A stretch of 52,701 nt of DNA from Thainema sp. (GTDB lineage Bacteria; Cyanobacteriota; Cyanobacteriia; Phormidesmidales; Phormidesmidaceae), in NCBI GenBank assembly GCA_052168235.1, contig JBQLZK010000053.1, positions 1 through 52,701 of the forward strand. The letters are read 5' to 3'. Positions 4,729-16,469 of this stretch are shown here, one piece after another. Within the stretch, counting starts at the first letter, position 1. Each line of letters opens with the position of its first letter. The notes under the pieces are model-generated. The model did not search any database. It had not been told where the DNA came from and saw nothing but the letters and a program-made list of their open reading frames with translations. Both the position numbers and the translations under genes were made by a program.

Positions 4729-5694
4729 TTAAGACGCAAATTTCCACATGACTGGATCTTGATCAAGCTGATCCGTCACTAGACGGCTAAACCGATCCAT
4801 TTCTGCCAAATCTTCATCAGACAGCTTGATGTTAGCCGCTTTGGCGTTTTCGGTTGCCTGCTCCGGTTTGCGGGCACCAACGATTGCATTGCTGTTGGGC
4901 TGAGCGATTAGCCAAGCTAAAGCCAAACACGTGAGGCTGGTGTCGTACTTTTCGGCGATAGGTCGCAGTTGATCCAAAGCCTGCTGCGCTTTTTGGTAGG
5001 TTTCGCCCTGGAAAAGCTTGTTTTTGGAGCGGATATCGTCTTTTTCAAATTTGTGGTCAGGGCCAAATTTACCCGTCAGTAAGCCTTGCGCCAGCGATGA
5101 GTAGGCAATGATTGAGATGCCGTGATCGATACAGTAGGGCATCGCATCCTGCTCAAACTGTCGCCAGAATAGAGAATAAGGCGGCTGGATGCTGTCAATT
5201 TGGCCGTACTGAGCTGCTTCCGTAATCTGATCGCGCGAGAAGTTGGAAACGCCGATGGCGCGAATTTTGCCGTCGTCTTTCAGCTTATTCAAGGCGCGCA
5301 TGGTTTCTTCGACAGGCACAACATCACTATTGAATGAGCCGGAGGGCCAGTGGATTTGGTACAGGTCAATATAGTCGGTCTGTAAGCGCTTTAGCGACCC
5401 TTCACAGGCTTCAATCACTTGGTCGTATTTGAGATGGTTGGCAAATACTTTGGTGGCGAGAACAACGCGATCGCGCACGTCCGACAGCGCTTTGGCGACC
5501 AGTTTTTCAGAATAGCCATCGCCATAAACCTCAGCCGTATCAAACGTGGTGACACCCGCATCAAACGCGGCCTTCATCGCATCAATCACGGGTTGGTCTT
5601 CTACCCCTACCCAGCCGGACTTGCCCGCCTGCCAGGTACCCATGATGATCGGCGTGATTTGGATGTCGGAGTGTCCCAGCGATCTCAGTTCCAT
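4729..5694 (-). CDS. Aldo/keto reductase
   Basis: FDTAEVYG, IDLYQIHWP and GKIRAIGVSNF motifs. Confidence 0.96.
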   Translation of the reverse strand: MELRSLGHSDIQITPIIMGTWQAGKSGWVGVEDQPVIDAMKAAFDAGVTTFDTAEVYGDGYSEKLVAKALSDVRDRVVLATKVFANHLKYDQVIEACEGSLKRLQTDYIDLYQIHWPSGSFNSDVVPVEETMRALNKLKDDGKIRAIGVSNFSRDQITEAAQYGQIDSIQPPYSLFWRQFEQDAMPYCIDHGISIIAYSSLAQGLLTGKFGPDHKFEKDDIRSKNKLFQGETYQKAQQALDQLRPIAEKYDTSLTCLALAWLIAQPNSNAIVGARKPEQATENAKAANIKLSDEDLAEMDRFSRLVTDQLDQDPVMWKFAS

Positions 5695-5911
5695 GTTGGC
5701 CCTTCCTTATATCAGCAATAGTTTCTATTGTGCTGAGATTGGCTGCGATCGCAACTCTATCGCGGGATAGTCTCCCTTTTCTGTTCATCAATAAATTTTG
5801 GGATACATTCCGCGATTTTACGGTTGCTGGTGGGAATTCTGATGTCGCGGGTTCATCTAGACAGTCAGTCCCAATCGGTCAGCATACCCCATCACGCTAG
5901 GAGTTAGAGCC

Positions 5912-7678
5912 ATGACGGTAGTTGCCAAGCCGCAGCGGCAGATTTCCATTGGCCTCAAAATTTTTGGTATTGCAACCAGTCTTTTAGGACTGTTGCTGCT
6001 GGTGGTTTACGTATCGTCGAATCGGCTGCGGCGAGTCAATGAAGAAATTTCTGGCATGGCTGACTACGTGATTCCGATTACGGATCTGGTAGCAACCATT
6101 GACGTACATGCCCTGGAACAAGAACTGCACTTTGAACGAGTCTTGAAACTGTACGAAATTGAACCAGCCGACGGAGAAGCACTACGGCACAGACGGCATA
6201 TTTTCATGGAGCGTCAGCGGTTTGAAGAGCGAGGACAGCTTGTTGATCAGGAATTAGCCAAAGCTGAAGCCTTGATGAAAGATGCGATCGCACATGCCCA
6301 CCTGGCGACCAATCGGCAAGAATGGCTCAAACTAGAACCTCGAATTGAGCAAATCGAGCAGGAACATCAAGACTTTCACGACCACGCCATTCGACTCCTA
6401 AAGCTTTATGACCGCAAACCTGAAAAAGCTCGCGCTTTTATTAGTCAACTGCAAACCGAGGAAGCCGATTTTAACCGCGAAATTGAAGAAATTTTGCTGG
6501 AGCTAGAAGCCTTCACCGTCGAAGCGGCCCGTTCCGGCCAATCTCACCAGCAAATTGTCCAAAACCTCAGCTTGTCCGTCGCCATGATTGCCACTGTGTT
6601 TGGCTTGTTCTACGCCTCCGCCGTAACGCTTGGCCTGGTTCGCCCCGTACGGAAGTTAACCCACAGCCTGCAAAACATCCGGGCTGGCGACCTCGATACC
6701 GACCTATCCATTTCGACCCGTGATGAAGTTGGCATCCTGGCCCAGTCGTTCAGAGCAATGGTGGCAGAACTGCGGCTGAAGCAGAATCTACAAGACACCT
6801 TTGGCAAATACGTTGACCCCCGCGTCGTCCAGCGCCTTGTCAATCCCAGCGACCTGACAACAGCCCAGGGTGAACGCCAGGTCATGACCGTGTTCTTTGC
6901 AGACGTAGAAGGATTTGATGCGATCGCAGCTACCCTATCCCCATCCCAACTGGTAAAGCTGACCAACCAATATCTCACCCTGATGTCCGCGCCCATCTCA
7001 GATCATGCCGGCGTCATCGACAAATTCATCGGCACAATAATCATGGGCTTCTGGGGTGCTCCCTTCACCAGCGAAACCGAACATGCGATCGCAGCTTGCA
7101 AAACCGCCTTAGCCCAAATCAACAAGCTGCCTGTACTCCGCGAATTTGTCAGCCAATTCTGTCCCGACAGCGCCATTCTCGATGCACTCGACCTGCACAT
7201 CGGCATCACCACAGGTTCCCTCGTCGTCGGCAACATGGGTTCAGACTCCTCCAAGTCCTACACCGTCATGGGCGACACCGTAAACACCGCCTCCCGCCTC
7301 AAAGGAGCCAGCAAGCAATACGGCGTCCGTATTCTCATTACCCAAGAAACCCGCAACCAGCTTACAGACGAGTTCATTACCCGCGAACTCGATCGCATCC
7401 AAGTCGTCGGCAAACAAGAACCCATCCAGATTTACCAACTCCTCGGCTCGCAAGACTCCATAACCGACCAGCAACATTCTCTAATCGAGACATTCCAAAG
7501 CGGCCTATTCGCCTACCGCCAGCGAGACTGGGACACCGCCCAACAGCACTTTGAACACTGCCTAACTCTCCAACCCACCGACCAACCCAGCCAAATCTAT
7601 TTGGAACGACTGTACGTTTTACGCGAGTCCCCACTAGATGAAGATTGGGACGGTGTTTGGCAATTAACCAGCAAGTAG
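5912..7678 (+). CDS. Membrane class III adenylate/guanylate cyclase (TM-periplasmic helical sensor-TM-HAMP-cyclase-TPR-like tail), lacking the second metal Asp
   Basis: FFADVEGF, DKFIGT, GNMGS, YTVMGDTVNTASRL; HAMP motif RDEVGILAQSF. Confidence 0.92.
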   Translation: MTVVAKPQRQISIGLKIFGIATSLLGLLLLVVYVSSNRLRRVNEEISGMADYVIPITDLVATIDVHALEQELHFERVLKLYEIEPADGEALRHRRHIFMERQRFEERGQLVDQELAKAEALMKDAIAHAHLATNRQEWLKLEPRIEQIEQEHQDFHDHAIRLLKLYDRKPEKARAFISQLQTEEADFNREIEEILLELEAFTVEAARSGQSHQQIVQNLSLSVAMIATVFGLFYASAVTLGLVRPVRKLTHSLQNIRAGDLDTDLSISTRDEVGILAQSFRAMVAELRLKQNLQDTFGKYVDPRVVQRLVNPSDLTTAQGERQVMTVFFADVEGFDAIAATLSPSQLVKLTNQYLTLMSAPISDHAGVIDKFIGTIIMGFWGAPFTSETEHAIAACKTALAQINKLPVLREFVSQFCPDSAILDALDLHIGITTGSLVVGNMGSDSSKSYTVMGDTVNTASRLKGASKQYGVRILITQETRNQLTDEFITRELDRIQVVGKQEPIQIYQLLGSQDSITDQQHSLIETFQSGLFAYRQRDWDTAQQHFEHCLTLQPTDQPSQIYLERLYVLRESPLDEDWDGVWQLTSK

Positions 7679-7711
7679 TGTGAGCATGCTTGATGCTTTA
7701 TTTGAGGATAT

Positions 7712-8145
7712 TGAAAACCCCGTTTGTGGGGGCGCTTGCCCCCACGCCCCCGCTGGAGGACGGTTGCGTCCCCCAGACCCCCTCCAAAAAAGCTAACGTG
7801 TTGAGTTGCAACAGCATTCTGTTACGTTCAATAGGTTTGGCGTTCCGCCAAACCCCAACAATAACACCCGATCCACCCCAGCAAAGCGAAGCGATTAAAC
7901 ACCACCCACCGATCACCTCGTCCGTGGGGGCCTGGGGCGACGGCACGCACCAGTGGGGGAGCCTGAGGGGGCTAGTCCCCTCAGAAGCAACCTTCCAACT
8001 CTAATTAAACAAACTTCCTGTTTAACCACACAATCTTTCTTAAACTACAAAATCCCGCATCGGGCGAATACCATTCACCCCTACAAATAAAAAACGCCCT
8101 AGGCAAATGCCTTTTACCCCTACAAAACCAAAACATTCACCCTAC
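7712..8145. repeat. Cluster of GC-rich REP-like palindromic elements between the two cyclase genes
   Basis: GTGGGGGCgcttGCCCCCAC, GAGGGGGctagtCCCCTC and several degenerate ...CATTCACCCCTAC-like copies. Confidence 0.6.
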
Positions 8146-8153
8146 AAAAAACC

Positions 8154-9905
8154 ATGACTCACCCCCAACCCCGATTCAAAATCCCCATCGGCCTCAAAAT
8201 CTTCAGCGTCGCTACCAGCATGCTTGCCCTCCTCCTCAGCGTCGCCTACCTCAACTACAGCCGCATCAAACGCGTCAACGACGAACTAATTGACATCGCC
8301 GAATACCTCACAACCCTCACCGAAGCCGTTGCCGCCATCAACATCCACGTCCTCGAACAAGAAATCCACTTCGAACGTGTCCTCCAACAATACGAAATGG
8401 ACACCCCCAACCCCATCCAGATTCAGCAAGAAATCGACGAATTTGAACAACGAGGACAGCAAGTTGATCAAGATATCGAACATGCGATCGCACTTGCCCA
8501 AACCGCTGTCGAGAATGGCCGCACCACCGAAGACGTGATCGAATTTGCCCGCATTCAGCCCCTACTGGAAATCCTCGCAGCCGATCACCAAAAATTTCAT
8601 GACCACAGCCTGCAAATCGTTGATTTACTCAAATCCGGCAACAAAGCTAACGCCGAGCTGCTAGATGAACGCCTAGAAGAATATGAAGATGACTTCGATC
8701 AACGCGTGCAAAGCATCTTATTTGAACTCGGCGCTTATACCGAAACCTCCGCCAAACGAGCCGAACGCCACGAACAAGAAGCCGTTCGCGCCAGTTGGGT
8801 TTTGGCCGGAGTTGCCACAGGCGTCGGTGCTGTTTTTGCCTCGCTCGTTACCTTCGGCCTGATTCGCCCCATTCGTCGCCTCGTCAAAGGCACCCGCCAA
8901 GTCGAACAGGGCGATTTCACCATTCAAGTTCCCGTCGATACCCGCGATGAGATCGCCACCCTCACCCAAGCCTTCAACGCCATGGTGAACGACGTGCGGG
9001 AAAAAGAAGCGATCAAAGCCGCTTTTGGTCAGTACGTCGATCCGCGCATCGTCGATACGCTCATGCAGCAATCGGGCGAAAACCCAATCAGCAAGCAAGA
9101 AATGACCGTTTTCTTCTCCGACATTGCTGGCTTCAGCGCCATTAGCGAACTGCTGACGCCCGAAGGACTCGTTCGCTTAATCAATCAGTACTTAACCCTC
9201 GCTTCAGAACCGATCCAGCAGCATCAGGGTGTAATTGATAAGTTTATTGGCGATGCCGTCACCGCTTTCTGGGGGCCGCCATTTGTAGCTGACACTGACC
9301 ATGCCAAACTCGCCTGCTACGCCGCCTTAGAACAATCGGCTCAGCTCACTAAGCTCCAGCGACTGATGCCCGACATCATGGGCATTCGCAAAGGCTTACC
9401 CGACATCAACATTCGCATTGGTCTTGCAACCGGAGAATTAGTCGTCGGCAACATCGGTTCCGAGCAGTCCAAGTCTTACACCGTTTTGGGTTATCCAGTA
9501 CAACTGGCCGAACAGTTAGAAAGCAGCAATAAGCACTACGGCACGACAATTCTGATTACTGAAGCAACTAAGCAACAAGCTGGAGACGTCATTGAAACCC
9601 GCGAAATAGACTGGATTGCTGCTCCCGAAAAAGGAACACCTATTCGAATTTATGAACTATTAGGCTATGGCGGTACTCTTGATGATGCAACGATGCAGTG
9701 GCGAGATACCTTCGAAGCGGCGTTACGAATGTATCGACAACAAGACTGGCAGCAAGCTCAGGAATTATTAGAAATCTGTCTGCGATCGCACCCAATCGAT
9801 CGGCCAACACAAATCTATTTAGAGCGTATTAATTACTTTCTACAAAGCCCGCCGCCCCCCAACTGGGCCGGATTATGGGATAGCTCTTACATCAGACAAA
9901 CGTAG
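8154..9905 (+). CDS. Paralogous membrane class III adenylate/guanylate cyclase, lacking the catalytic Asn/Arg
   Basis: FFSDIAGF, DKFIGDAV, GNIGS, YTVLGYPVQLAEQL; same architecture as 5912-7678. Confidence 0.92.
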   Translation: MTHPQPRFKIPIGLKIFSVATSMLALLLSVAYLNYSRIKRVNDELIDIAEYLTTLTEAVAAINIHVLEQEIHFERVLQQYEMDTPNPIQIQQEIDEFEQRGQQVDQDIEHAIALAQTAVENGRTTEDVIEFARIQPLLEILAADHQKFHDHSLQIVDLLKSGNKANAELLDERLEEYEDDFDQRVQSILFELGAYTETSAKRAERHEQEAVRASWVLAGVATGVGAVFASLVTFGLIRPIRRLVKGTRQVEQGDFTIQVPVDTRDEIATLTQAFNAMVNDVREKEAIKAAFGQYVDPRIVDTLMQQSGENPISKQEMTVFFSDIAGFSAISELLTPEGLVRLINQYLTLASEPIQQHQGVIDKFIGDAVTAFWGPPFVADTDHAKLACYAALEQSAQLTKLQRLMPDIMGIRKGLPDINIRIGLATGELVVGNIGSEQSKSYTVLGYPVQLAEQLESSNKHYGTTILITEATKQQAGDVIETREIDWIAAPEKGTPIRIYELLGYGGTLDDATMQWRDTFEAALRMYRQQDWQQAQELLEICLRSHPIDRPTQIYLERINYFLQSPPPPNWAGLWDSSYIRQT

Positions 9906-10435
9906 TTGCCATCTCTCGCAGGGATGGACTAAACAGCTTCATCAAGTTAGTTTCTGCCTCATTTCTTATATCTAGATCTATCAAGAAAGGCGGGCAAACA
10001 CTAGCTCCAAACTGGTCTGGTAACGACGGTTCCGCCATCACAGGCACACGCTATCAATCATTTTCTACCTCGTAGAAGCTCGCATTAGCGACAACTCTAA
10101 AATCAATAAGTCTCAACAATCCTTGTAAATTTCAATGAAGTTTTAAACTGATTCTCAATATATTCACTTATATTTAACATTACCGGGGGAGTTCCTATCC
10201 TGTGGTGTGTTCTGCTAAGTGTGTTTTGTCATGCTGTTTATTAGATTGACAAGGTGATTGTCGAGTTATTGATAAAGCGCTCTTGCTATTTGGGATGTCT
10301 CCCCATGCAAATTTAGAATTCATCACTTAATCGAATAGTTCGCAGCTAGAAAACTCAGTCGCTCATTTTGCGATCGCTGTTTTTTCTAATTCGTGCAATC
10401 CTCTAACACCTTTGAAACTTTGGAGAGTAGAACTT

Positions 10436-10807
10436 ATGACGTTTGCTAATCAGCAAGTCGTTGAGAATACAACGCTTTTAGACACACTTAAAAGCTTTTT
10501 GATGTGGGTTCTCATCCTAGAAGTTAGCTTTCTAGTGGTTGGATTTCCGCTGGTGACAATCATCGTAGCGGGAGCAGCATTACTAGCTGTAACGCTTCAG
10601 TCCTTCATGGCTAGCGCAGTGCTAATCGTTGCCACTGGCCTAATTGGTATTAATCTTTTAGCCGTATCTATCGCATCAGGTTTACTGGTTAGCCGAGGGA
10701 TTTACCCCCACGAAGTTAGCTGGCTCGATTGGCTCAAGTCCGATACCGATCCACTCAACCAACCCATCTATGCCTCTTGCCCCCTAACTTGCGATATCCA
10801 CCATTAA
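10436..10807 (+). CDS. Hypothetical membrane protein
   Basis: About three hydrophobic segments, GGAG RBS upstream of ATG 10436, C-terminal YASCPLTC motif. Confidence 0.75.
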   Translation: MTFANQQVVENTTLLDTLKSFLMWVLILEVSFLVVGFPLVTIIVAGAALLAVTLQSFMASAVLIVATGLIGINLLAVSIASGLLVSRGIYPHEVSWLDWLKSDTDPLNQPIYASCPLTCDIHH

Positions 10808-10907: not shown

Positions 10908-13900
10908 TTACGCTGCTTGCCAGCCCGAGGAAGCATTGTAAGTATAAAGACTTCCACCAACCTTAAATTTCATCGATCCACTGGAACCATAGTAATCATT
11001 GACATCAATGGAACCGTTGGAAGCTAGACCTAAGGTTAGGCTACCACCACTTGTACTTGCAGTAATATCTGAGAACGTGTAATCACCTAAATCAAGAATG
11101 TCATCAGAACTAGTTAGATTATATGTATCCAGTCCAGTTAATGTATCTTTGCTATAACCACTAAAGACATTGCTTACAGAGTTGGCGAAAACAGTATCAC
11201 TCCCACCAGAGTTCACTAGATTTTCAATTATGGTTCCATACGCAATAGATGTCCCGAATGACGATGTACGATATTGAGATCCTTCGCTGATATCATCACC
11301 GAGATTAGAATCCTGTGCTCTATCGTAGTAATAAGACCCATCGTATGCTGATACAGTCGTTAGCATCCCACCTTGATTCAGATCGAAGTGATATTCATCA
11401 GTGCTGGATAAAATGGAAAAATTTAATGTATCGATGCCATCACTGTCCCAGAGAGCTTGCTTGACCGAAATTGCCGAGCTACCAAAAAATTCGCCACCAG
11501 TCTCGTACTCATAGATACTACTGAAAGAATAGTCGGTTGCATCTGACTGGTATATTTTTGAGCCATACAAATACTGTAGAGCCCGAATATCATAGGGCAT
11601 AGCAGTAATTGCCTTTTTACCACCACTATCAGCACTTGTATATTTCGTATCACCGCCAACTGAGTTGTAAGTCATAACTGTATTAGTATTGTTGTCTTCT
11701 TCGGGTGATAAGAAAATTCCTTCCTCATTATCATAGTTACCAGAGTGTTTCAGTCCCAGCGCATGCCCTATTTCGTGGATTATTGTTTCATAGCCATGAG
11801 TACCAGCTTCTCCTGAAAAGCCACTATATGAACTGTCTGCATAATCGGGGTTTAAGCGGACATCTCCTGCTCTAAGCGTGTAGCCAGGATAGGAAGCCTG
11901 CGCGTAGCTAACTCCATCAGAAAACATAAATCGCATAACACCAAAGCTATCAACTGTATCGTTGACTTCGACAAAGTCAATATCGATATACCGCTCTAGC
12001 ATCTCTAAGATTTCCCGAACATTTTTCTTAATAGATTCAGTGAGTTCAGAGAAAACCTCACTATTTTGACCTGCTTCGCTGGTGTAGCTACTAGCTGCTG
12101 AGCTATCCAAGAAGCTGAAAGTCATGATGCCGCCGTTGGAACTGGTATCCCATTTTCTTAAACTTTCATGGAGTAGGGCATCAATAGCGTCATCTCCAGA
12201 AAGTTCAGATGTTGTCACGCCAGGATCGATAACTTCTCCAATGCTGAAGAATGTGTCGCTGAAATCAGTTACGTTGCCATCATCGAGGCTAGTAATTCGG
12301 ATCTTATAGTCATTACCTGTGGCCAGATCCGTTGGCAATGTCCAAAGATAACTACCATCACTTTCAGTTGAGTTAATAACATCTTGGATTTTGACACTAC
12401 CCTTGTAGAGTTCAATCTTGACATTGCCACTAATATTGTCATCCCAAGTCAGATTATAGTCTTGACCAGCGTTAAACGTATCGCCACCATTCGGTGAGGT
12501 AATTGTTACGTAAGGTTCTGGTTCAACGGTGATAGCTTGAGCAACGACGTTATTGGTTTCATTCGTCTCAGAGACACTATCATTACTATCTGCTACGAAC
12601 AGAATGTATTGAGGGTCAAGACCCCAGCTAGCGTCATAAACGAAACTGTCAGAAATAGACTCAGAACCACCAGCGCTGAGATTCCCCACCGCAATAGAAC
12701 CAACCTTGATATCACCACTATCCAAAATTGCATCATCAGACAGCCAATAGGTGAAGGTGCTGGCACCTGCTGGATCAGTCCCATTATTCAATACATCGGC
12801 ACTAACTGTAACGCTTTCACCTACGGTAATTGAACTAGGTACAGACTGGTTGGTTACCGTCAAATCAGGTTGGGCTGGTGCCGTTATTGAAAATGTTCCG
12901 CCATCATCATATAAATCGGGATCAGACGTGCTGCTGATGCGAATTGTGTAATTACTGCCAGGTTCTAAATTCGCTGATAACGACCAGTTATATTCACCAT
13001 CGCTGATAGTAGACGACTCAATAGTTTGAGCAAAGCTACCATCTTGATACAAGTCAATTTGGACATTCTCATCAATATTGTCACTCCAGGTGATTGAATA
13101 GGAAGTCCCTGCCTGTAAAGTACTGCTACTGGTTGGAGAAGACACATGTATCGTTGGCAAATCAATCAGAATACCAGTCGTCACGACATTGTTGAATTCG
13201 TTAGTTTCATTGAATTCATCTGAGCTATCAACTTTCAAACCCAAGTAGTACTTGCGGCTCCCTCTAATTGTTGATTCACCAAATTGATTCCAAAACTCAT
13301 CGTCTTGTCCTGGCAAGTTCAGCCCTGATACAAGATATTCTATGTAACCAGCATCAATGTTCAGGTTTGCCCATCCAAAAACTTTATCATTCTCGCTAAA
13401 TGTTGTGTCAGTAGAGATGAAGAAGCTAACATCTATCCTGCCAAAGTCAATATCCTCGGAGAGTATAATGCGGGGAACTATTGACTCACCAAGACTAAAT
13501 GGTTGAACTTGCCCCGATTCATCCAGTTTAATTGAATACGAAATTCCATCTGCTGTAATGTCGCCCGTTGAGGAGATGATGGCAAAAGTTTCACTACTGT
13601 CAAATAGACTGGGATCTGTGAAGCTACTAATCTGAATCCTATAATCGTTGGCAGGGTCAAGTCCATCCAGGTTTTCCCATGTGAAGCTACCATCGCTTTC
13701 TGTTGAAGAAGCGATAGTTTGAATAAATGTTCCACCTCTGTAAAGTTCAATTGTGACATTTTCACCAATGTTGTCATCCCAAGTAATGTCATAGCTTTGA
13801 CTAATTTGGAGTGACTTATAGTTATTGGGTGCAATAACTGTAATGTAAGGCTCCGGCTGCACAGTAATAGCATGAGCAAAAACGTTATTGGTCTCGTTGC

Positions 13901-16469
13901 TTTCTGCTACAACATTGCTACCGTCTACTTTGAACAGAATGTACTTAGGCTCTAATCCCCAACTGGATTGATATGTAAAGCTATGAGAATCAGTTTCAGA
14001 GTTTCCAACACCTAGAGTCCCTACGGCATCGGATCCAAGGAAAATATCATTATTGTTTAATACGCTGTCATTGGACAGCCAGTACTTAATAACGCTCGTG
14101 CCAGCAGCAGCAGCGCCACTGTTTAAAGTATCTGCACTGATAGTGACGGTATCACCAATCGTAATTGAACTTGGCGCAGACGCATTAGTTACAACCAAAT
14201 CTGGCTGATCTGCGGCTGTTATTGTGAAGAAGCCATCACTATCGTCAAACAAACTCGGATCAGCCTCACTGCTGATGCGGATTTTGTAATTGCTTCCTGG
14301 GGTTAAATTGGTTGGAATAGTCCAGGTATATTGGCCATCGCTACCTATGGAAGACTCGATAGTTTGAACCACACTGCCATTCTGAAGCAGGTCAATTTTG
14401 ACATTTTCACCGATATTGTCATTCCAGGTAATTGTGTGAGATGTCCCTGCTTGTAGCGTGTTACCACCGTTGGGCGAAGCTACGGTAATATTTTCAACTG
14501 ATACAAAATCAAAGTAAGGACTTGATAAGCTTAACCCTTGAACCCCTTTGATGAGGCCGACCAGATCTCCGTTGCTAGCCAAGCGGATTTCGGTATCTTG
14601 ACCAACTTCTGCTAGATAGTATCCTTTGACATCAGTCGGTTCATTGTTAGCCCATGAAATACACTTGAGCTGAATCGTATCTTCTGAAGTGTTGAAGTCA
14701 GCAATTTCAGCGTAATCTAGGTCTCCGTTTTGGGTGTAGTAAGAATAAAACTTACTTCCCAAAATAAATAAATCTTGGCCTGTACCGCCTTCTAGTGAAT
14801 CTTGCTCAGTTATACCAAATCCATAGCCATCTAAGATGTCAAGGTCATGACCACCACTCAGCATATCATTGCCATCACCACCACTGAGGTAATCGTTTCC
14901 TGTTTCCCCATGCAGTATGTCATTGCCTAGCTGACCATACAGAGTGTCATTTTGGGAGCCACCCTCAATGTAATCATTGCCACTGCCACCCTCAATTGTG
15001 TCATTACCAGAAGCTCCATAGAGGAAATCATGATCATTGCCACCACTGAGAAAGTCCGCTCCCTCATCACCATTTAAGTTGTCGTTACCATCACTACCGT
15101 AAAGAAAATCATCACCAGCTCCCCCACTCAGAATATCGTTACCTAGATCTCCATTGAGTTTATCTACGCCCTCACCGCCCTGAAGATTGTCATCGCTATC
15201 TCCTCCATAAACCTCGTCATTGCCTGTTTCGCCATATAAGAAGTCAACGCCAGCACCACCGTAGAGGGTATCGTCTTGAGAACCACCGTAAAGAGTATCA
15301 TCTCCTGAATCACCCTGAATATAATCGTTTCCAGAGGCTCCATACAACTCATCGTTGCCAGCACCACCATATAGATAATCTACACCTGAATCTCCATTCA
15401 AATAATCATTCCCGCCACTACCATAAAGTTCGTCATTGCCAATGCCTCCACTTAGGAAGTCATTGCCCAGATCCCCATTCAAGAAATCAGCATCATCACC
15501 TCCATAGAGATGGTCATCATCATTGCCACCGTATAGTTGATCATTTCCAGCGTCTCCATATATGTCATCTATTCCAGAGTCGCCATAAATAATGTCGTTT
15601 CCGGTGTCCCCATAAATGATGTTTCGTTGGGAATCGCCACTGAGACTATCGTCATTCGGGCTGCCCTGAATATAGATATGACTCATTGAGGATTGAATAA
15701 GTGGTTTCCAACTCGTATTACTAACTGTGGGAAGAGCTGCCCCGCTTATTCGAGTTGTCCCATTCATTAGCCAGACAGTGTTGGCTCCAGTACTATAGTT
15801 GCGCCAGAGGAGATCAGTTTTACCGTCGGTGTTAAAATCACCCGTACCTTCAATTTGCCAGTTTACGTCGTTGACAGATTGTAGAGATGTACCACTCATG
15901 CGAGAGATGCCGTTCATGAACCAAACCGAATTGGCTCCAGTGCGGTAATTGCGCCAGAGAATGTCAGATTGACCATCACTGTTGAAGTCGCCTACACCCT
16001 CAATTTGCCAGTTTACGTCGTTGACAGATTGTAGAGATGTACCACTCATGCGAGAGATGCCGTTCATGAACCAAATCGAATTGACTCCAGTGCGGTAATT
16101 GCGCCAGAGAATATCAGTTTCGCCGTCTCCATTGAAATCGCCTGTACCCTCAATTTGCCAGTTCACGTTGTTGACACTAGATAAACTAGCGCTATAGGAA
16201 AATGAGGAATCGCTCATAAACCAAACATGATTTTCCCCTGTGTCATAGTTACGCCAGAGAATATCGGCTTCATTATCTCCATTAAAATCGTTGATTCCTT
16301 CCAAGTCCCAACCAGCAAAAGACGGCAAACTCGCATTGCCAATCTTAGAAATTCCGTCCATGAACCAAGCTGTGTTAGCTCCATTTCCACTGTGGTGCCA
16401 CAAAATATCAATACTGATATCGTCATTGAAGTAAGAGCCAACGGAACCACTCTGGCTATCAACTGTCAT
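10908..16469 (-). CDS. Large secreted protein: FG-GAP repeats, RTX Ca-binding repeats, Ser/Thr-rich Ig-like and CARDB-like domains, C-terminal M10/serralysin-like zinc protease
   Basis: GDFNGDGETDILWRN repeats; many GGxGxDxLxG nonapeptides; PDLVVT...ESNETNN; HEIGHALGLKH with Met-turn NTVMTY. Confidence 0.9.
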   Translation of the reverse strand: MTVDSQSGSVGSYFNDDISIDILWHHSGNGANTAWFMDGISKIGNASLPSFAGWDLEGINDFNGDNEADILWRNYDTGENHVWFMSDSSFSYSASLSSVNNVNWQIEGTGDFNGDGETDILWRNYRTGVNSIWFMNGISRMSGTSLQSVNDVNWQIEGVGDFNSDGQSDILWRNYRTGANSVWFMNGISRMSGTSLQSVNDVNWQIEGTGDFNTDGKTDLLWRNYSTGANTVWLMNGTTRISGAALPTVSNTSWKPLIQSSMSHIYIQGSPNDDSLSGDSQRNIIYGDTGNDIIYGDSGIDDIYGDAGNDQLYGGNDDDHLYGGDDADFLNGDLGNDFLSGGIGNDELYGSGGNDYLNGDSGVDYLYGGAGNDELYGASGNDYIQGDSGDDTLYGGSQDDTLYGGAGVDFLYGETGNDEVYGGDSDDNLQGGEGVDKLNGDLGNDILSGGAGDDFLYGSDGNDNLNGDEGADFLSGGNDHDFLYGASGNDTIEGGSGNDYIEGGSQNDTLYGQLGNDILHGETGNDYLSGGDGNDMLSGGHDLDILDGYGFGITEQDSLEGGTGQDLFILGSKFYSYYTQNGDLDYAEIADFNTSEDTIQLKCISWANNEPTDVKGYYLAEVGQDTEIRLASNGDLVGLIKGVQGLSLSSPYFDFVSVENITVASPNGGNTLQAGTSHTITWNDNIGENVKIDLLQNGSVVQTIESSIGSDGQYTWTIPTNLTPGSNYKIRISSEADPSLFDDSDGFFTITAADQPDLVVTNASAPSSITIGDTVTISADTLNSGAAAAGTSVIKYWLSNDSVLNNNDIFLGSDAVGTLGVGNSETDSHSFTYQSSWGLEPKYILFKVDGSNVVAESNETNNVFAHAITVQPEPYITVIAPNNYKSLQISQSYDITWDDNIGENVTIELYRGGTFIQTIASSTESDGSFTWENLDGLDPANDYRIQISSFTDPSLFDSSETFAIISSTGDITADGISYSIKLDESGQVQPFSLGESIVPRIILSEDIDFGRIDVSFFISTDTTFSENDKVFGWANLNIDAGYIEYLVSGLNLPGQDDEFWNQFGESTIRGSRKYYLGLKVDSSDEFNETNEFNNVVTTGILIDLPTIHVSSPTSSSTLQAGTSYSITWSDNIDENVQIDLYQDGSFAQTIESSTISDGEYNWSLSANLEPGSNYTIRISSTSDPDLYDDGGTFSITAPAQPDLTVTNQSVPSSITVGESVTVSADVLNNGTDPAGASTFTYWLSDDAILDSGDIKVGSIAVGNLSAGGSESISDSFVYDASWGLDPQYILFVADSNDSVSETNETNNVVAQAITVEPEPYVTITSPNGGDTFNAGQDYNLTWDDNISGNVKIELYKGSVKIQDVINSTESDGSYLWTLPTDLATGNDYKIRITSLDDGNVTDFSDTFFSIGEVIDPGVTTSELSGDDAIDALLHESLRKWDTSSNGGIMTFSFLDSSAASSYTSEAGQNSEVFSELTESIKKNVREILEMLERYIDIDFVEVNDTVDSFGVMRFMFSDGVSYAQASYPGYTLRAGDVRLNPDYADSSYSGFSGEAGTHGYETIIHEIGHALGLKHSGNYDNEEGIFLSPEEDNNTNTVMTYNSVGGDTKYTSADSGGKKAITAMPYDIRALQYLYGSKIYQSDATDYSFSSIYEYETGGEFFGSSAISVKQALWDSDGIDTLNFSILSSTDEYHFDLNQGGMLTTVSAYDGSYYYDRAQDSNLGDDISEGSQYRTSSFGTSIAYGTIIENLVNSGGSDTVFANSVSNVFSGYSKDTLTGLDTYNLTSSDDILDLGDYTFSDITASTSGGSLTLGLASNGSIDVNDYYGSSGSMKFKVGGSLYTYNASSGWQAA

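Follow-up and report, generated by a model that had tools for sequence, protein, structure and literature searches.

A tandem pair of membrane-bound class III cyclases with complementary active-site losses, a probable heterodimeric adenylate cyclase in bacteria

In bacteria, class III adenylate cyclases have been described as homodimers. Two neighbouring cyclase genes, A and B, in the 52,701-nucleotide stretch of a Thainema sp. genome analysed here (the window) raise the question of whether such an enzyme can also be assembled from two different chains that each contribute half of the active site. The residue patterns of A, B and their homologues make it highly probable that the two proteins form a membrane-bound receptor adenylate cyclase that is an obligate heterodimer with one active site and is encoded as a two-gene unit.

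Architecture and catalytic residues

The genes, their domains and the spacer between them are located in the window as follows:

5912..7678, + strand: gene A, ORF of 588 aa, proposed C2-like subunit
6635..6775, + strand: HAMP domain of A (aa 242-288), PF00672, E 5.8e-14, 52.6 bits (cut-off 25)
6878..7441, + strand: class III cyclase domain of A (aa 323-510), PF00211 Guanylate_cyc, 72.3 bits (cut-off 21.9)
7679..8153, no strand: A-B spacer of 475 bp, containing a dispersed repeat of ~290 bp (about 7713-8000)
8154..9905, + strand: gene B, ORF of 583 aa, proposed C1-like subunit
8859..8999, + strand: HAMP domain of B (aa 236-282), PF00672, E 1.4e-14, 54.5 bits (cut-off 25)
9093..9662, + strand: class III cyclase domain of B (Pfam aa 314-474), PF00211, 54.1 bits (cut-off 21.9)

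A and B are 42% identical over 580 residues and are built alike: a helical periplasmic part lies between two hydrophobic segments, and HAMP, the class III cyclase domain and a C-terminal tail come after the second segment. Hydrophobic windows in A start at aa 10-19 and 215-226, and in both proteins the second one lies just before HAMP (aa 215-244 in A, aa 213-238 in B), the arrangement of HAMP-linked transmembrane receptors, in which HAMP directly follows the second transmembrane (TM) segment. The periplasmic part matches 4HB_MCP_1 in B alone, and weakly (16.2 bits vs a cut-off of 27), and some homologues carry a precomputed PF02203 label. Both proteins score above the curated cut-off of PF00211, which places them among the class III nucleotidyl cyclases, and the genome contains 16 further PF00211 matches, for a total of 18 cyclase domains. 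The best solved match of both proteins is Pseudomonas aeruginosa CyaB (3r5g; HMMER, E 1e-31 for A and E 3.9e-27, query aa 313-503, for B).

Residues were assigned to catalytic positions by the 3r5g alignment as well as by motif reading, with the key residues of A and B lying opposite the 3r5g stretches FSDIRGF, DKFVGD and YTIIGREVNLASRLE in the HMMER alignment. Read by script, these residues are D331, K371, T375 (DKFIGT), T451, N458 and R462 (VNTASR) in A, and D323, K363, D367 (DKFIGD), T443, Q450 and Q454 (VQLAEQ) in B, in exact agreement with the initial annotation, which had also given both ORFs their correct coordinates. A lacks the second metal Asp, having T375 there, and keeps K371, T451, N458, R462 and G500-K501; B lacks the transition-state Asn and Arg (Q450, Q454) and keeps both metal Asps and the phosphate-loop residues. 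Neither chain holds the six canonical residues of a self-sufficient homodimer, and the full set arises solely by combining the two domains, as in heterodimeric class III enzymes. The pair K371/T451 would assign A to subclass IIIb, as Lys and Thr at the two purine-specifying positions are said to mark adenylate cyclases of that subclass.

Complementary loss across homologues

The reciprocal losses recur throughout the family. A-orthologues in related genomes (complete or partial sequences) retain Asn and Arg in 14/14 cases and Lys in 12/14, and have lost the second Asp in all 14, with T or P instead; the first Asp has also been lost in 6/14 (Q, V, T or E). B-orthologues keep both Asps (12/12) and have lost Asn (12/12), Arg (11/12, the exception being L056, in which it is retained) and Lys (8/12). 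A wider set, 220 homologues with a length of 500 aa or more, comprises 93 A-type, 99 B-type and 28 intact proteins. Across 55 A-type sequences N458 and R462 are invariant, and K371 and T451 are conserved to at least 90%; across 59 B-type sequences D323 and D367 are likewise invariant. Three B-type proteins (P0169, P0170 and P0232) retain Asn.

Column entropy extends this pattern beyond the canonical residues. Positions conserved in B and variable in A are D323, F327, S328, S331, E332, G366, A368, P406, G410, R412, G414, P416 and R421, whereas D455, V457, N458, R462, G465, Q469, E492, V498, G500 and K501 are conserved in A and variable in B. Intact homologues keep both sets. In A-type proteins the metal Asps and the phosphate loop drift around an invariant Asn and Arg, and the reverse is seen in B-type proteins. 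With reciprocal losses in every orthologous pair examined and two clans of 93 and 99 members, the pattern is far beyond chance.

Gene pairing and co-divergence

Six loci were obtained by searching genome contigs with A; L021, L022 and L024, which match its catalytic half only, were left out of further analysis. A and B are adjacent and on the same strand in all 15 other loci with enough flanking sequence. These are 12 genome loci, in each of which A is upstream of B, and 3 metagenome loci, of which one has B first. For a further 36 A/B pairs, records of Desulfococcaceae, SAR324 and Spirochaetes among them, the longest contigs of the two partners are identical in length. No second cyclase gene accompanies an intact family member at 74 of 76 metagenome loci. 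Distance matrices of A and B are strongly correlated over 33 pairs (r=0.936, a value reached in 0/2000 permutations), and identity between A and B inside pairs is 40-47%. Adjacency and co-divergence are evidence of co-inheritance, which is distinct from physical contact. For ~10 A-type proteins on long contigs (e.g. P0017, P0105 and P0107), no partner was among the best 120 of 1551 matches, and these proteins may stand singly. Orthologues occurring singly or without the reciprocal substitutions had been proposed as evidence against heterodimerisation, and the outcome of this check did not refute heterodimerisation.

The spacer of 475 bp is long compared with those of 11 orthologous pairs (16-103 bp), and since A and B are parted here by the ~290 bp repeat, their co-transcription is not as certain as that of the orthologous pairs. 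Six near-full copies of the repeat (83-87% identity) and partial copies occur elsewhere in the genome. An Rfam search of 5600-10500 matched nothing, and a promoter and terminator scan of the same interval gave sites no commoner than in shuffled sequence and none informative for the spacer. A search for inverted repeats recovered only an 11-nt hairpin in the spacer and no terminal inverted repeats for the dispersed repeat.

Phylogeny and origin

A-type, B-type and intact proteins form three clean clans (FastTree support 100, 93 and 99). In an outgroup-rooted IQ-TREE analysis of 60 rows, A forms one clade (SH-aLRT 100) and B another (99), both nested among intact proteins, and A and B descend from intact single-gene relatives. 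A, B and two intact proteins form a polytomy in this rooted tree, which consequently gives no support for A and B as sister clades. Degeneration with pairing goes back to a single A clade and a single B clade, and is one evolutionary event rather than a series of independent ones. We rejected the reading of the pair as a young tandem duplication decaying into pseudogenes, since both frames are open at all loci and the complementary residues are invariant.

We would give roughly even chances to a scenario in which the pair is a natural and ancient counterpart, in prokaryotes, of the C1/C2 design: an intact single-gene 2TM-HAMP cyclase was duplicated once and the copies split the active site between them, after which the module spread and an asymmetric receptor resulted. 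The spread would have been partly by horizontal transfer, among Cyanobacteria, Desulfobacterota-like, SAR324, spirochaete and other lineages. The two subunits differ in their periplasmic half-sensor and HAMP helix pair, which would make the receptor intrinsically asymmetric, and a single composite ligand site would drive the single catalytic site.

Proposed mechanism and predicted complex

Catalytic domains pair head-to-tail in all class III cyclases, and those of A and B would do the same. In mammalian adenylate cyclases, the C1 domain reportedly contributes two metal Asps and the phosphate loop, and C2 the Lys, the purine-specifying residue, Asn, Arg and a late Lys. As the counterpart of C1, B would give the metal Asps D323 and D367, the phosphate-binding loop (F327, S328, S331 and E332) and R421, and A, as the counterpart of C2, would give the adenine-specifying K371 and T451, the transition-state residues N458 and R462, and K501. 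Together they would build one full ATP-to-cAMP site, the second, symmetry-related A/B site being degenerate and free to evolve. Each subunit would thread from an N-terminal TM segment through a helical periplasmic sensor part, a second TM segment and HAMP to the catalytic domain and a short tail. A-A and B-B dimers would each lack essential residues and probably be inactive.

The initial annotation had likewise proposed that both homodimers are incomplete and that A with B has one complete Lys/Thr (ATP-type) site. Sequence comparison strongly supports this probable split of the site, because the complementary sets of residues stay invariant in ~190 homologues and the dispensable ones drift, A and B are neighbours at every locus whose flanks permit a check, intact relatives are single genes and the paired lineages co-diverge. 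We infer from the same comparisons that A and B would heterodimerise in the cell and produce cAMP, with inactive homodimers, and that the single site would be controlled by a heteromeric periplasmic sensor/HAMP unit.

The heterodimer was also modelled, as suggested initially. The complex of A 290-515 and B 282-507 with ATP and 2 Mg was predicted with an ipSAE of 0.85 (best of 3 controls 0.00), run agreement of at least 93% and partner pLDDT of at least 83. This ipSAE mark is attained by 116/157 solved complexes and 2/215 mismatched pairs. The catalytic domains are hence predicted to dimerise, but the score does not separate heterodimer from homodimer and may be reached through likeness to solved cyclase dimers; as class III dimers have already been solved, the prediction is one of likeness only.

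Two further proposals are not supported. The degenerate pocket had been likened to the forskolin site of mammalian enzymes; the residues lining it are variable columns, with high entropy at D331 and 335-343 (phosphate loop) of A and at K363, 450, 454 and 493 of B, so nothing points to a conserved ligand pocket of the mammalian forskolin type. The two chains had also been viewed as a possible two-sensor AND gate. The periplasmic parts are helical and weakly 4HB_MCP-like, and modules of that kind bind their ligand at a dimer interface, which makes one composite, asymmetric A/B sensor at least as likely as two independent ones.

Comparison with known cyclases and alternative explanations

T375 in A and Q454 in B stand at the positions that we take to correspond to D300 and R376 of Mycobacterium tuberculosis Rv1625c. 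Single D300A and R376A mutants of that enzyme are inactive and together give an active dimer, according to PMC4821796, which cites Guo et al. 2001, and, as in A and B, one chain then lacks a metal Asp and the other the transition-state Arg. These are laboratory point mutants of a homodimer, whereas the A/B substitutions are natural, anciently fixed and found in several phyla. Mammalian adenylate cyclases are pseudoheterodimers of complementary domains, as the same source states (PMC4821796), and structures of AC5 C1 with AC2 C2 (1cjk/1azs) were weak matches in the solved-structure search. Like A/B, they form one site from two diverged class III domains with a degenerate second site, but C1 and C2 lie in one chain with two 6-TM bundles and a Lys/Asp substrate pair, whereas A and B are separate polypeptides from adjacent genes, each with a 2-TM sensor and HAMP, and would have a Lys/Thr pair. 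CyaB (3r5g) and the intact DKDTNR relatives, the latter with ~40% identity over the full length, share the fold and architecture of A and B, but have six catalytic residues per chain where A and B have half each.

Comparable in organisation are fungal NeoR/RGC and animal soluble guanylate cyclase (sGC) alpha/beta, which are likewise separately encoded paralogous sensor-cyclase chains. Both are obligate heterodimers, a likeness extended to A/B from sequence; they are eukaryotic, make cGMP and have rhodopsin or haem sensors, whereas A/B is bacterial, with Lys/Thr ATP-type residues and periplasmic helical sensors with HAMP. NeoR/RGC derives from one gene duplication, its genes are adjacent and its single subunits give no response, as reported in PMC10622942. 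Full-text literature searches gave no account of a bacterial class III cyclase that is naturally heterodimeric, although PMC2447327 (Shenoy et al. 2004), in which the word 'heterodimer' occurs three times, may already have suggested that mycobacterial cyclases heterodimerise.

The residue pattern could also be read as one subunit being the enzyme, with low or unconventional homodimer activity, and its paralogue an inhibitory or modulating pseudo-enzyme. The enzyme would then be B, or else A. In the window B has both Asps, K363 and T443, and some B-types retain Arg or Asn; one isolated cyclase module of fungal NeoR/RGC is active on its own and the other inactive (PMC10622942). Yet the columns for Asn and Arg in B, at 2.65 and 3.01 bits of entropy, rank with the most variable in the domain, Q or C replaces Lys in many B-types, and the (near-)invariant N458, R462, G500 and K501 of A would be purposeless unless a partner gave the metal Asps. 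Considering also that neither Rv1625c D300A nor R376A is active alone (PMC4821796), we regard a lone catalytic subunit as improbable.

It is more doubtful still that A and B are promiscuous, each pairing with other, intact cyclases of the cell, and that they lie side by side only because of a recent tandem duplication. The genome has 18 cyclase domains, and class III domains from different proteins can be made to heterodimerise (PMC4821796), but the duplication must be old, given the 40-47% identity within pairs and the deep clade formed by each type; adjacency at 15/15 loci and paired distances with r=0.94 also speak for a fixed partnership, and with an intact cyclase as partner there would be no relaxed selection on precisely the complementary half. 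That both proteins are dead pseudo-cyclases, serving as receptors, scaffolds or nucleotide-binding sensors and making no cyclic nucleotide, is hardly credible: a full residue set is absent from either chain and the 16 other PF00211 matches could supply cAMP, yet dead domains should not hold exactly complementary halves invariant at 40-60% identity across several phyla.

Implications

If A and B do form an obligate heterodimer, this family would represent a heterodimeric design that arose independently in prokaryotes, with a split traceable to a still-existing intact single-gene ancestor. It would provide a simple two-gene system for asymmetric signalling through a heteromeric sensor-HAMP-cyclase unit, and ~190 proteins now labelled 'HAMP domain-containing protein' or 'adenylate/guanylate cyclase domain-containing protein' would be re-annotated as half-enzymes. 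The pair would also be a tractable bacterial model of how the asymmetry of mammalian adenylate cyclases and sGC arose and how it signals.

Two tandem cyclase genes with complementary catalytic residues

The C2-like gene A and the C1-like gene B lie in tandem, separated by a spacer of 475 bp (7679–8153) that carries a dispersed repeat:

5912–7678, plus strand: gene A, open reading frame of 588 aa
~7713–8000, strand not given: dispersed repeat of ~290 bp, with copies elsewhere in the genome
8154–9905, plus strand: gene B, open reading frame of 583 aa

Both products contain a HAMP and a class III cyclase domain above the curated Pfam cut-offs and share 42% identity over 580 residues (34% in the periplasmic part, 49% in the catalytic domain). 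Hydrophobic windows (aa 10–37 and ~213–244) stand on either side of a helical part of ~180 residues in each, and the periplasmic part of B shows a weak likeness to 4HB_MCP_1 (16.2 bits, below cut-off). Together with the Pfam domains, the hydrophobic windows and helical part indicate the same predicted layout for A and B, namely transmembrane segment, periplasmic helical part, transmembrane segment, HAMP, cyclase domain and a tail of ~75 aa.

Script-based reading of the catalytic positions returned D331, K371, T375, T451, N458 and R462 in A and D323, K363, D367, T443, Q450 and Q454 in B, in exact agreement with the residues named in the initial annotation. Assignment to the six canonical positions rests on HMMER alignment to the solved catalytic domain of Pseudomonas aeruginosa CyaB (3r5g; E-values 1e-31 for A and 3.9e-27 for B), in which these residues stand opposite FSDIRGF, DKFVGD and YTIIGREVNLASRLE.

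The spacer repeat recurs elsewhere in the genome, on other contigs, as six near-full copies (83–87% identity) and about a dozen partial ones. No terminal inverted repeats were seen in it, only an 11-nt hairpin (7963–7984). Comparison with orthologous operons, in which the spacer is short, marks the repeat as an insertion; it resembles a small, non-autonomous mobile element that entered between the cyclase genes, where it could interrupt their co-transcription.

Elsewhere in the window, a minus-strand open reading frame of 1853 aa (10908–16469) encodes FG-GAP-like units (‘DILWRN...W’) and Ig-like modules, both in several copies, an extended series of calcium-binding GGxGxD-type repeats and, near the C-terminus, the zinc-protease motif HEIGHALGLKH; a secreted, serralysin-like protein of giant size is the probable product. 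The host genome (7.5 Mb, loci L001–L018) contains 18 class III cyclase domains above the Pfam cut-off, four of them scoring >220 bits.

Orthologous pairs in cyanobacterial genomes

A search with A against 173 genomes of the order identified orthologues in 13 other genomes (45–59% identity), with a B-orthologue directly downstream wherever the contig permits, and one further genome has only a B-orthologue, at the edge of a contig. A scan of genome contigs added two more cyanobacterial metagenome-assembled contigs, and a single genome (G174) came from an even, phylum-wide sampling of 400 others in Cyanobacteria. Within this phylum the pair is rare and patchy, occurring in ~13 of the order's 172 other genomes and in one of the 400 sampled across the phylum. 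Both genes are present at 12 genome loci, in the order A-to-B at all 12, with 16–103 bp between the A stop and the first ATG of B (measured at 11 of the 12). Six more loci (genomes G011, G016, G019, G026 and G034, and metagenome locus L138) run into a contig edge and are uninformative on pairing.

The catalytic losses are reciprocal and conserved across these orthologues. Those of A all keep Asn and Arg, and all keep Lys except two divergent sequences gapped at that position; the second Asp is lost in every case (T or P) and the first also in six (Q, V, T, E). Those of B all keep both Asps and have all lost Asn (Q, H, R, K, E), with Arg lost in 11 of 12 and Lys also lost (Q) in 8 of 12. In some lineages the losses have advanced further, as one would predict for chains that each depend on their own half-site alone.

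Distribution and history of the wider family

Searches with A and B against a collection of 5.8 billion proteins yielded 224 distinct proteins among the matches listed, of which the 220 of at least 500 aa were classified as A-type (missing one or both metal Asps, with Asn and Arg in place; 93 proteins), B-type (with both Asps, missing Asn, Arg or both; 99) or intact (DKDTNR, the six catalytic residues in chain order; 28). Their database names are generic. A FastTree phylogeny of all 220 resolved three clean clans (support 100, 93 and 99). A quick IQ-TREE analysis of 60 rows from the end of HAMP to the C-terminus, with four longer cyclases of related genomes as the outgroup, recovered A and B each as one clade (SH-aLRT 100 and 99). 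These two clades and two intact proteins form one clade (support 97) within a paraphyletic grade of intact proteins; the branching among A, B and the two intact proteins is a polytomy, and a sister relationship of A and B forms no part of the result. The simplest history suggested by these trees starts from an intact single-gene ancestor that duplicated once, with reciprocal loss following in the copies.

A few members depart from the usual pattern. P0102, in the A clade, lacks the first metal Asp and has the second (NKDTNR), the opposite of the usual loss, and its longest contig is the same size as that of a B-type protein; in the B clade, P0169, P0170 and P0232 have kept Asn and lost Arg and Lys (DQDTNE). 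Seven B-type proteins (P0204, P0205, P0208, P0211, P0214, P0219 and P0228) are 739–758 aa long, a length that implies an extra part.

Judged by the source names of family members, the pair extends beyond cyanobacteria. Longest contigs of identical size, a proxy for the same contig and not proof of it, link 39 A/B pairs in all, including records labelled Desulfococcaceae (P0058/P0170), SAR324 (P0098/P0226) and Spirochaetes (P0101/P0222); other A-type proteins are labelled Tectomicrobia, Deltaproteobacteria and Gemmatimonadetes, and one B-type protein Latescibacteria.

A metagenome scan with the A-type alignment provided 80 script-classified loci, whose counts indicate that intact members are solitary and degenerate members paired. 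Only intact DKDTNR members occur at 76 of the 80, as the sole cyclase gene of the locus in 74 of these 76. A-type and B-type genes lie side by side at three loci, among them L076:1191–4701, where B (DKDTGQ) is upstream of A (DKTTNR) in reverse order with overlapping frames, and L075, whose residue signatures are those of the locus in genome G109 and which may not be independent of it. At the remaining locus the contig, 2.3 kb with an A-type gene, is too short to show pairing. The association of degeneration with pairing goes back to a single origin on the tree and is one event long maintained, not many independent ones. Distance matrices of 33 contig-matched A/B pairs are strongly correlated (r = 0.936, reached by 0 of 2000 permutations), which shows stable co-inheritance and is no proof of contact.

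Conservation is divided across the catalytic domain

Column entropies over the catalytic domain of the A-type, B-type and intact groups reveal that the split between A and B reaches past the six textbook residues. Conserved in B and variable in A are the first Asp, the loop and helix start that come after it (F327, S328, S331, E332), G366 and A368 beside the second Asp, the loop P406-G410-R412-G414-P416, and R421; conserved in A and variable in B are D455, V457, N458, R462, G465, Q469, E492, V498 and the late G500-K501. Both sets are retained in the intact group. An alignment of 55 A sequences has N458 and R462 invariant and K371 and T451 at least 90% conserved, and D323 and D367 are invariant among 59 B sequences. 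We take the B-conserved set to be the metal- and phosphate-binding elements supplied by C1 in mammalian C1·C2, and the A-conserved set, late Lys included, to be the purine, ribose and gamma-phosphate contacts supplied by C2; these structural roles are reportedly those described by Tesmer and colleagues in 1997. By this reciprocal conservation, selection has held exactly one complete site per A+B pair and freed the other.

The residues of that second site fall in variable columns, so the analogy with the forskolin site drawn in the initial annotation is not supported. The two-sensor AND gate raised there is an unsupported possibility. At position 375 of the 93 A-type proteins, Thr nearly always takes the place of the lost second Asp, with Ser or Pro in a few; this non-random choice suggests that the residue still has a structural part to play at the degenerate site. 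In the B-type proteins the two residues preceding the lost Arg position are almost always Ala-Glu (A452, E453), against Ala-Ser/Ala in the A-type and intact groups, and this pair may have become fixed anew in the C1-like subunit.

A putative heterodimeric cyclase

A complex of A 290–515 and B 282–507, each with its own alignment, was modelled with ATP and two Mg. Three runs gave an ipSAE of 0.85 (best of three controls 0.00); 116 of 157 solved complexes attain that mark, as do 2 of 215 mismatched pairs. At least 93% of contacts agree between runs, and partner pLDDT is at least 83. The predicted interface takes in A 371–374 and 451–458 and B 363–367. Since class III cyclase dimers have been solved many times, this pass shows likeness to those dimers, and the same result cannot tell A-B from A-A or B-B.

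Class III active sites arise at the dimer interface. The residue sets of A and B are complementary and conserved, and their genes are linked. The nearest known systems are the mammalian C1/C2 adenylate cyclases, soluble guanylate cyclase alpha/beta, fungal NeoR/RGC and engineered Rv1625c mutant pairs. As recounted in a passage of PMC4821796 citing Guo et al. 2001, Rv1625c D300A and R376A are inactive singly and form an active dimer when combined, and a passage of PMC10622942 describes NeoR/RGC as obligate heterodimers encoded by adjacent genes from one duplication. Bacterial class III cyclases are presented in part of PMC4821796 as homodimers, a “fundamental difference” from the eukaryotic enzymes. 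In the full-text literature searched, no paper describes a bacterial class III cyclase that is naturally heterodimeric, and an earlier passing suggestion may exist; a 2004 survey (PMC2447327) mentions heterodimers.

The obligate heterodimer proposed in the initial annotation is strongly supported by the comparative evidence, its forskolin-like site and AND gate apart, and we consider it highly probable that A and B work in this way. The pair would have one site for conversion of ATP to cAMP, with the Asps and phosphate loop coming from B and Lys, Thr, Asn, Arg and the late Lys from A, and both A-A and B-B homodimers would be crippled. The differing periplasmic parts and HAMP halves of the two proteins would then form one heteromeric signalling unit.
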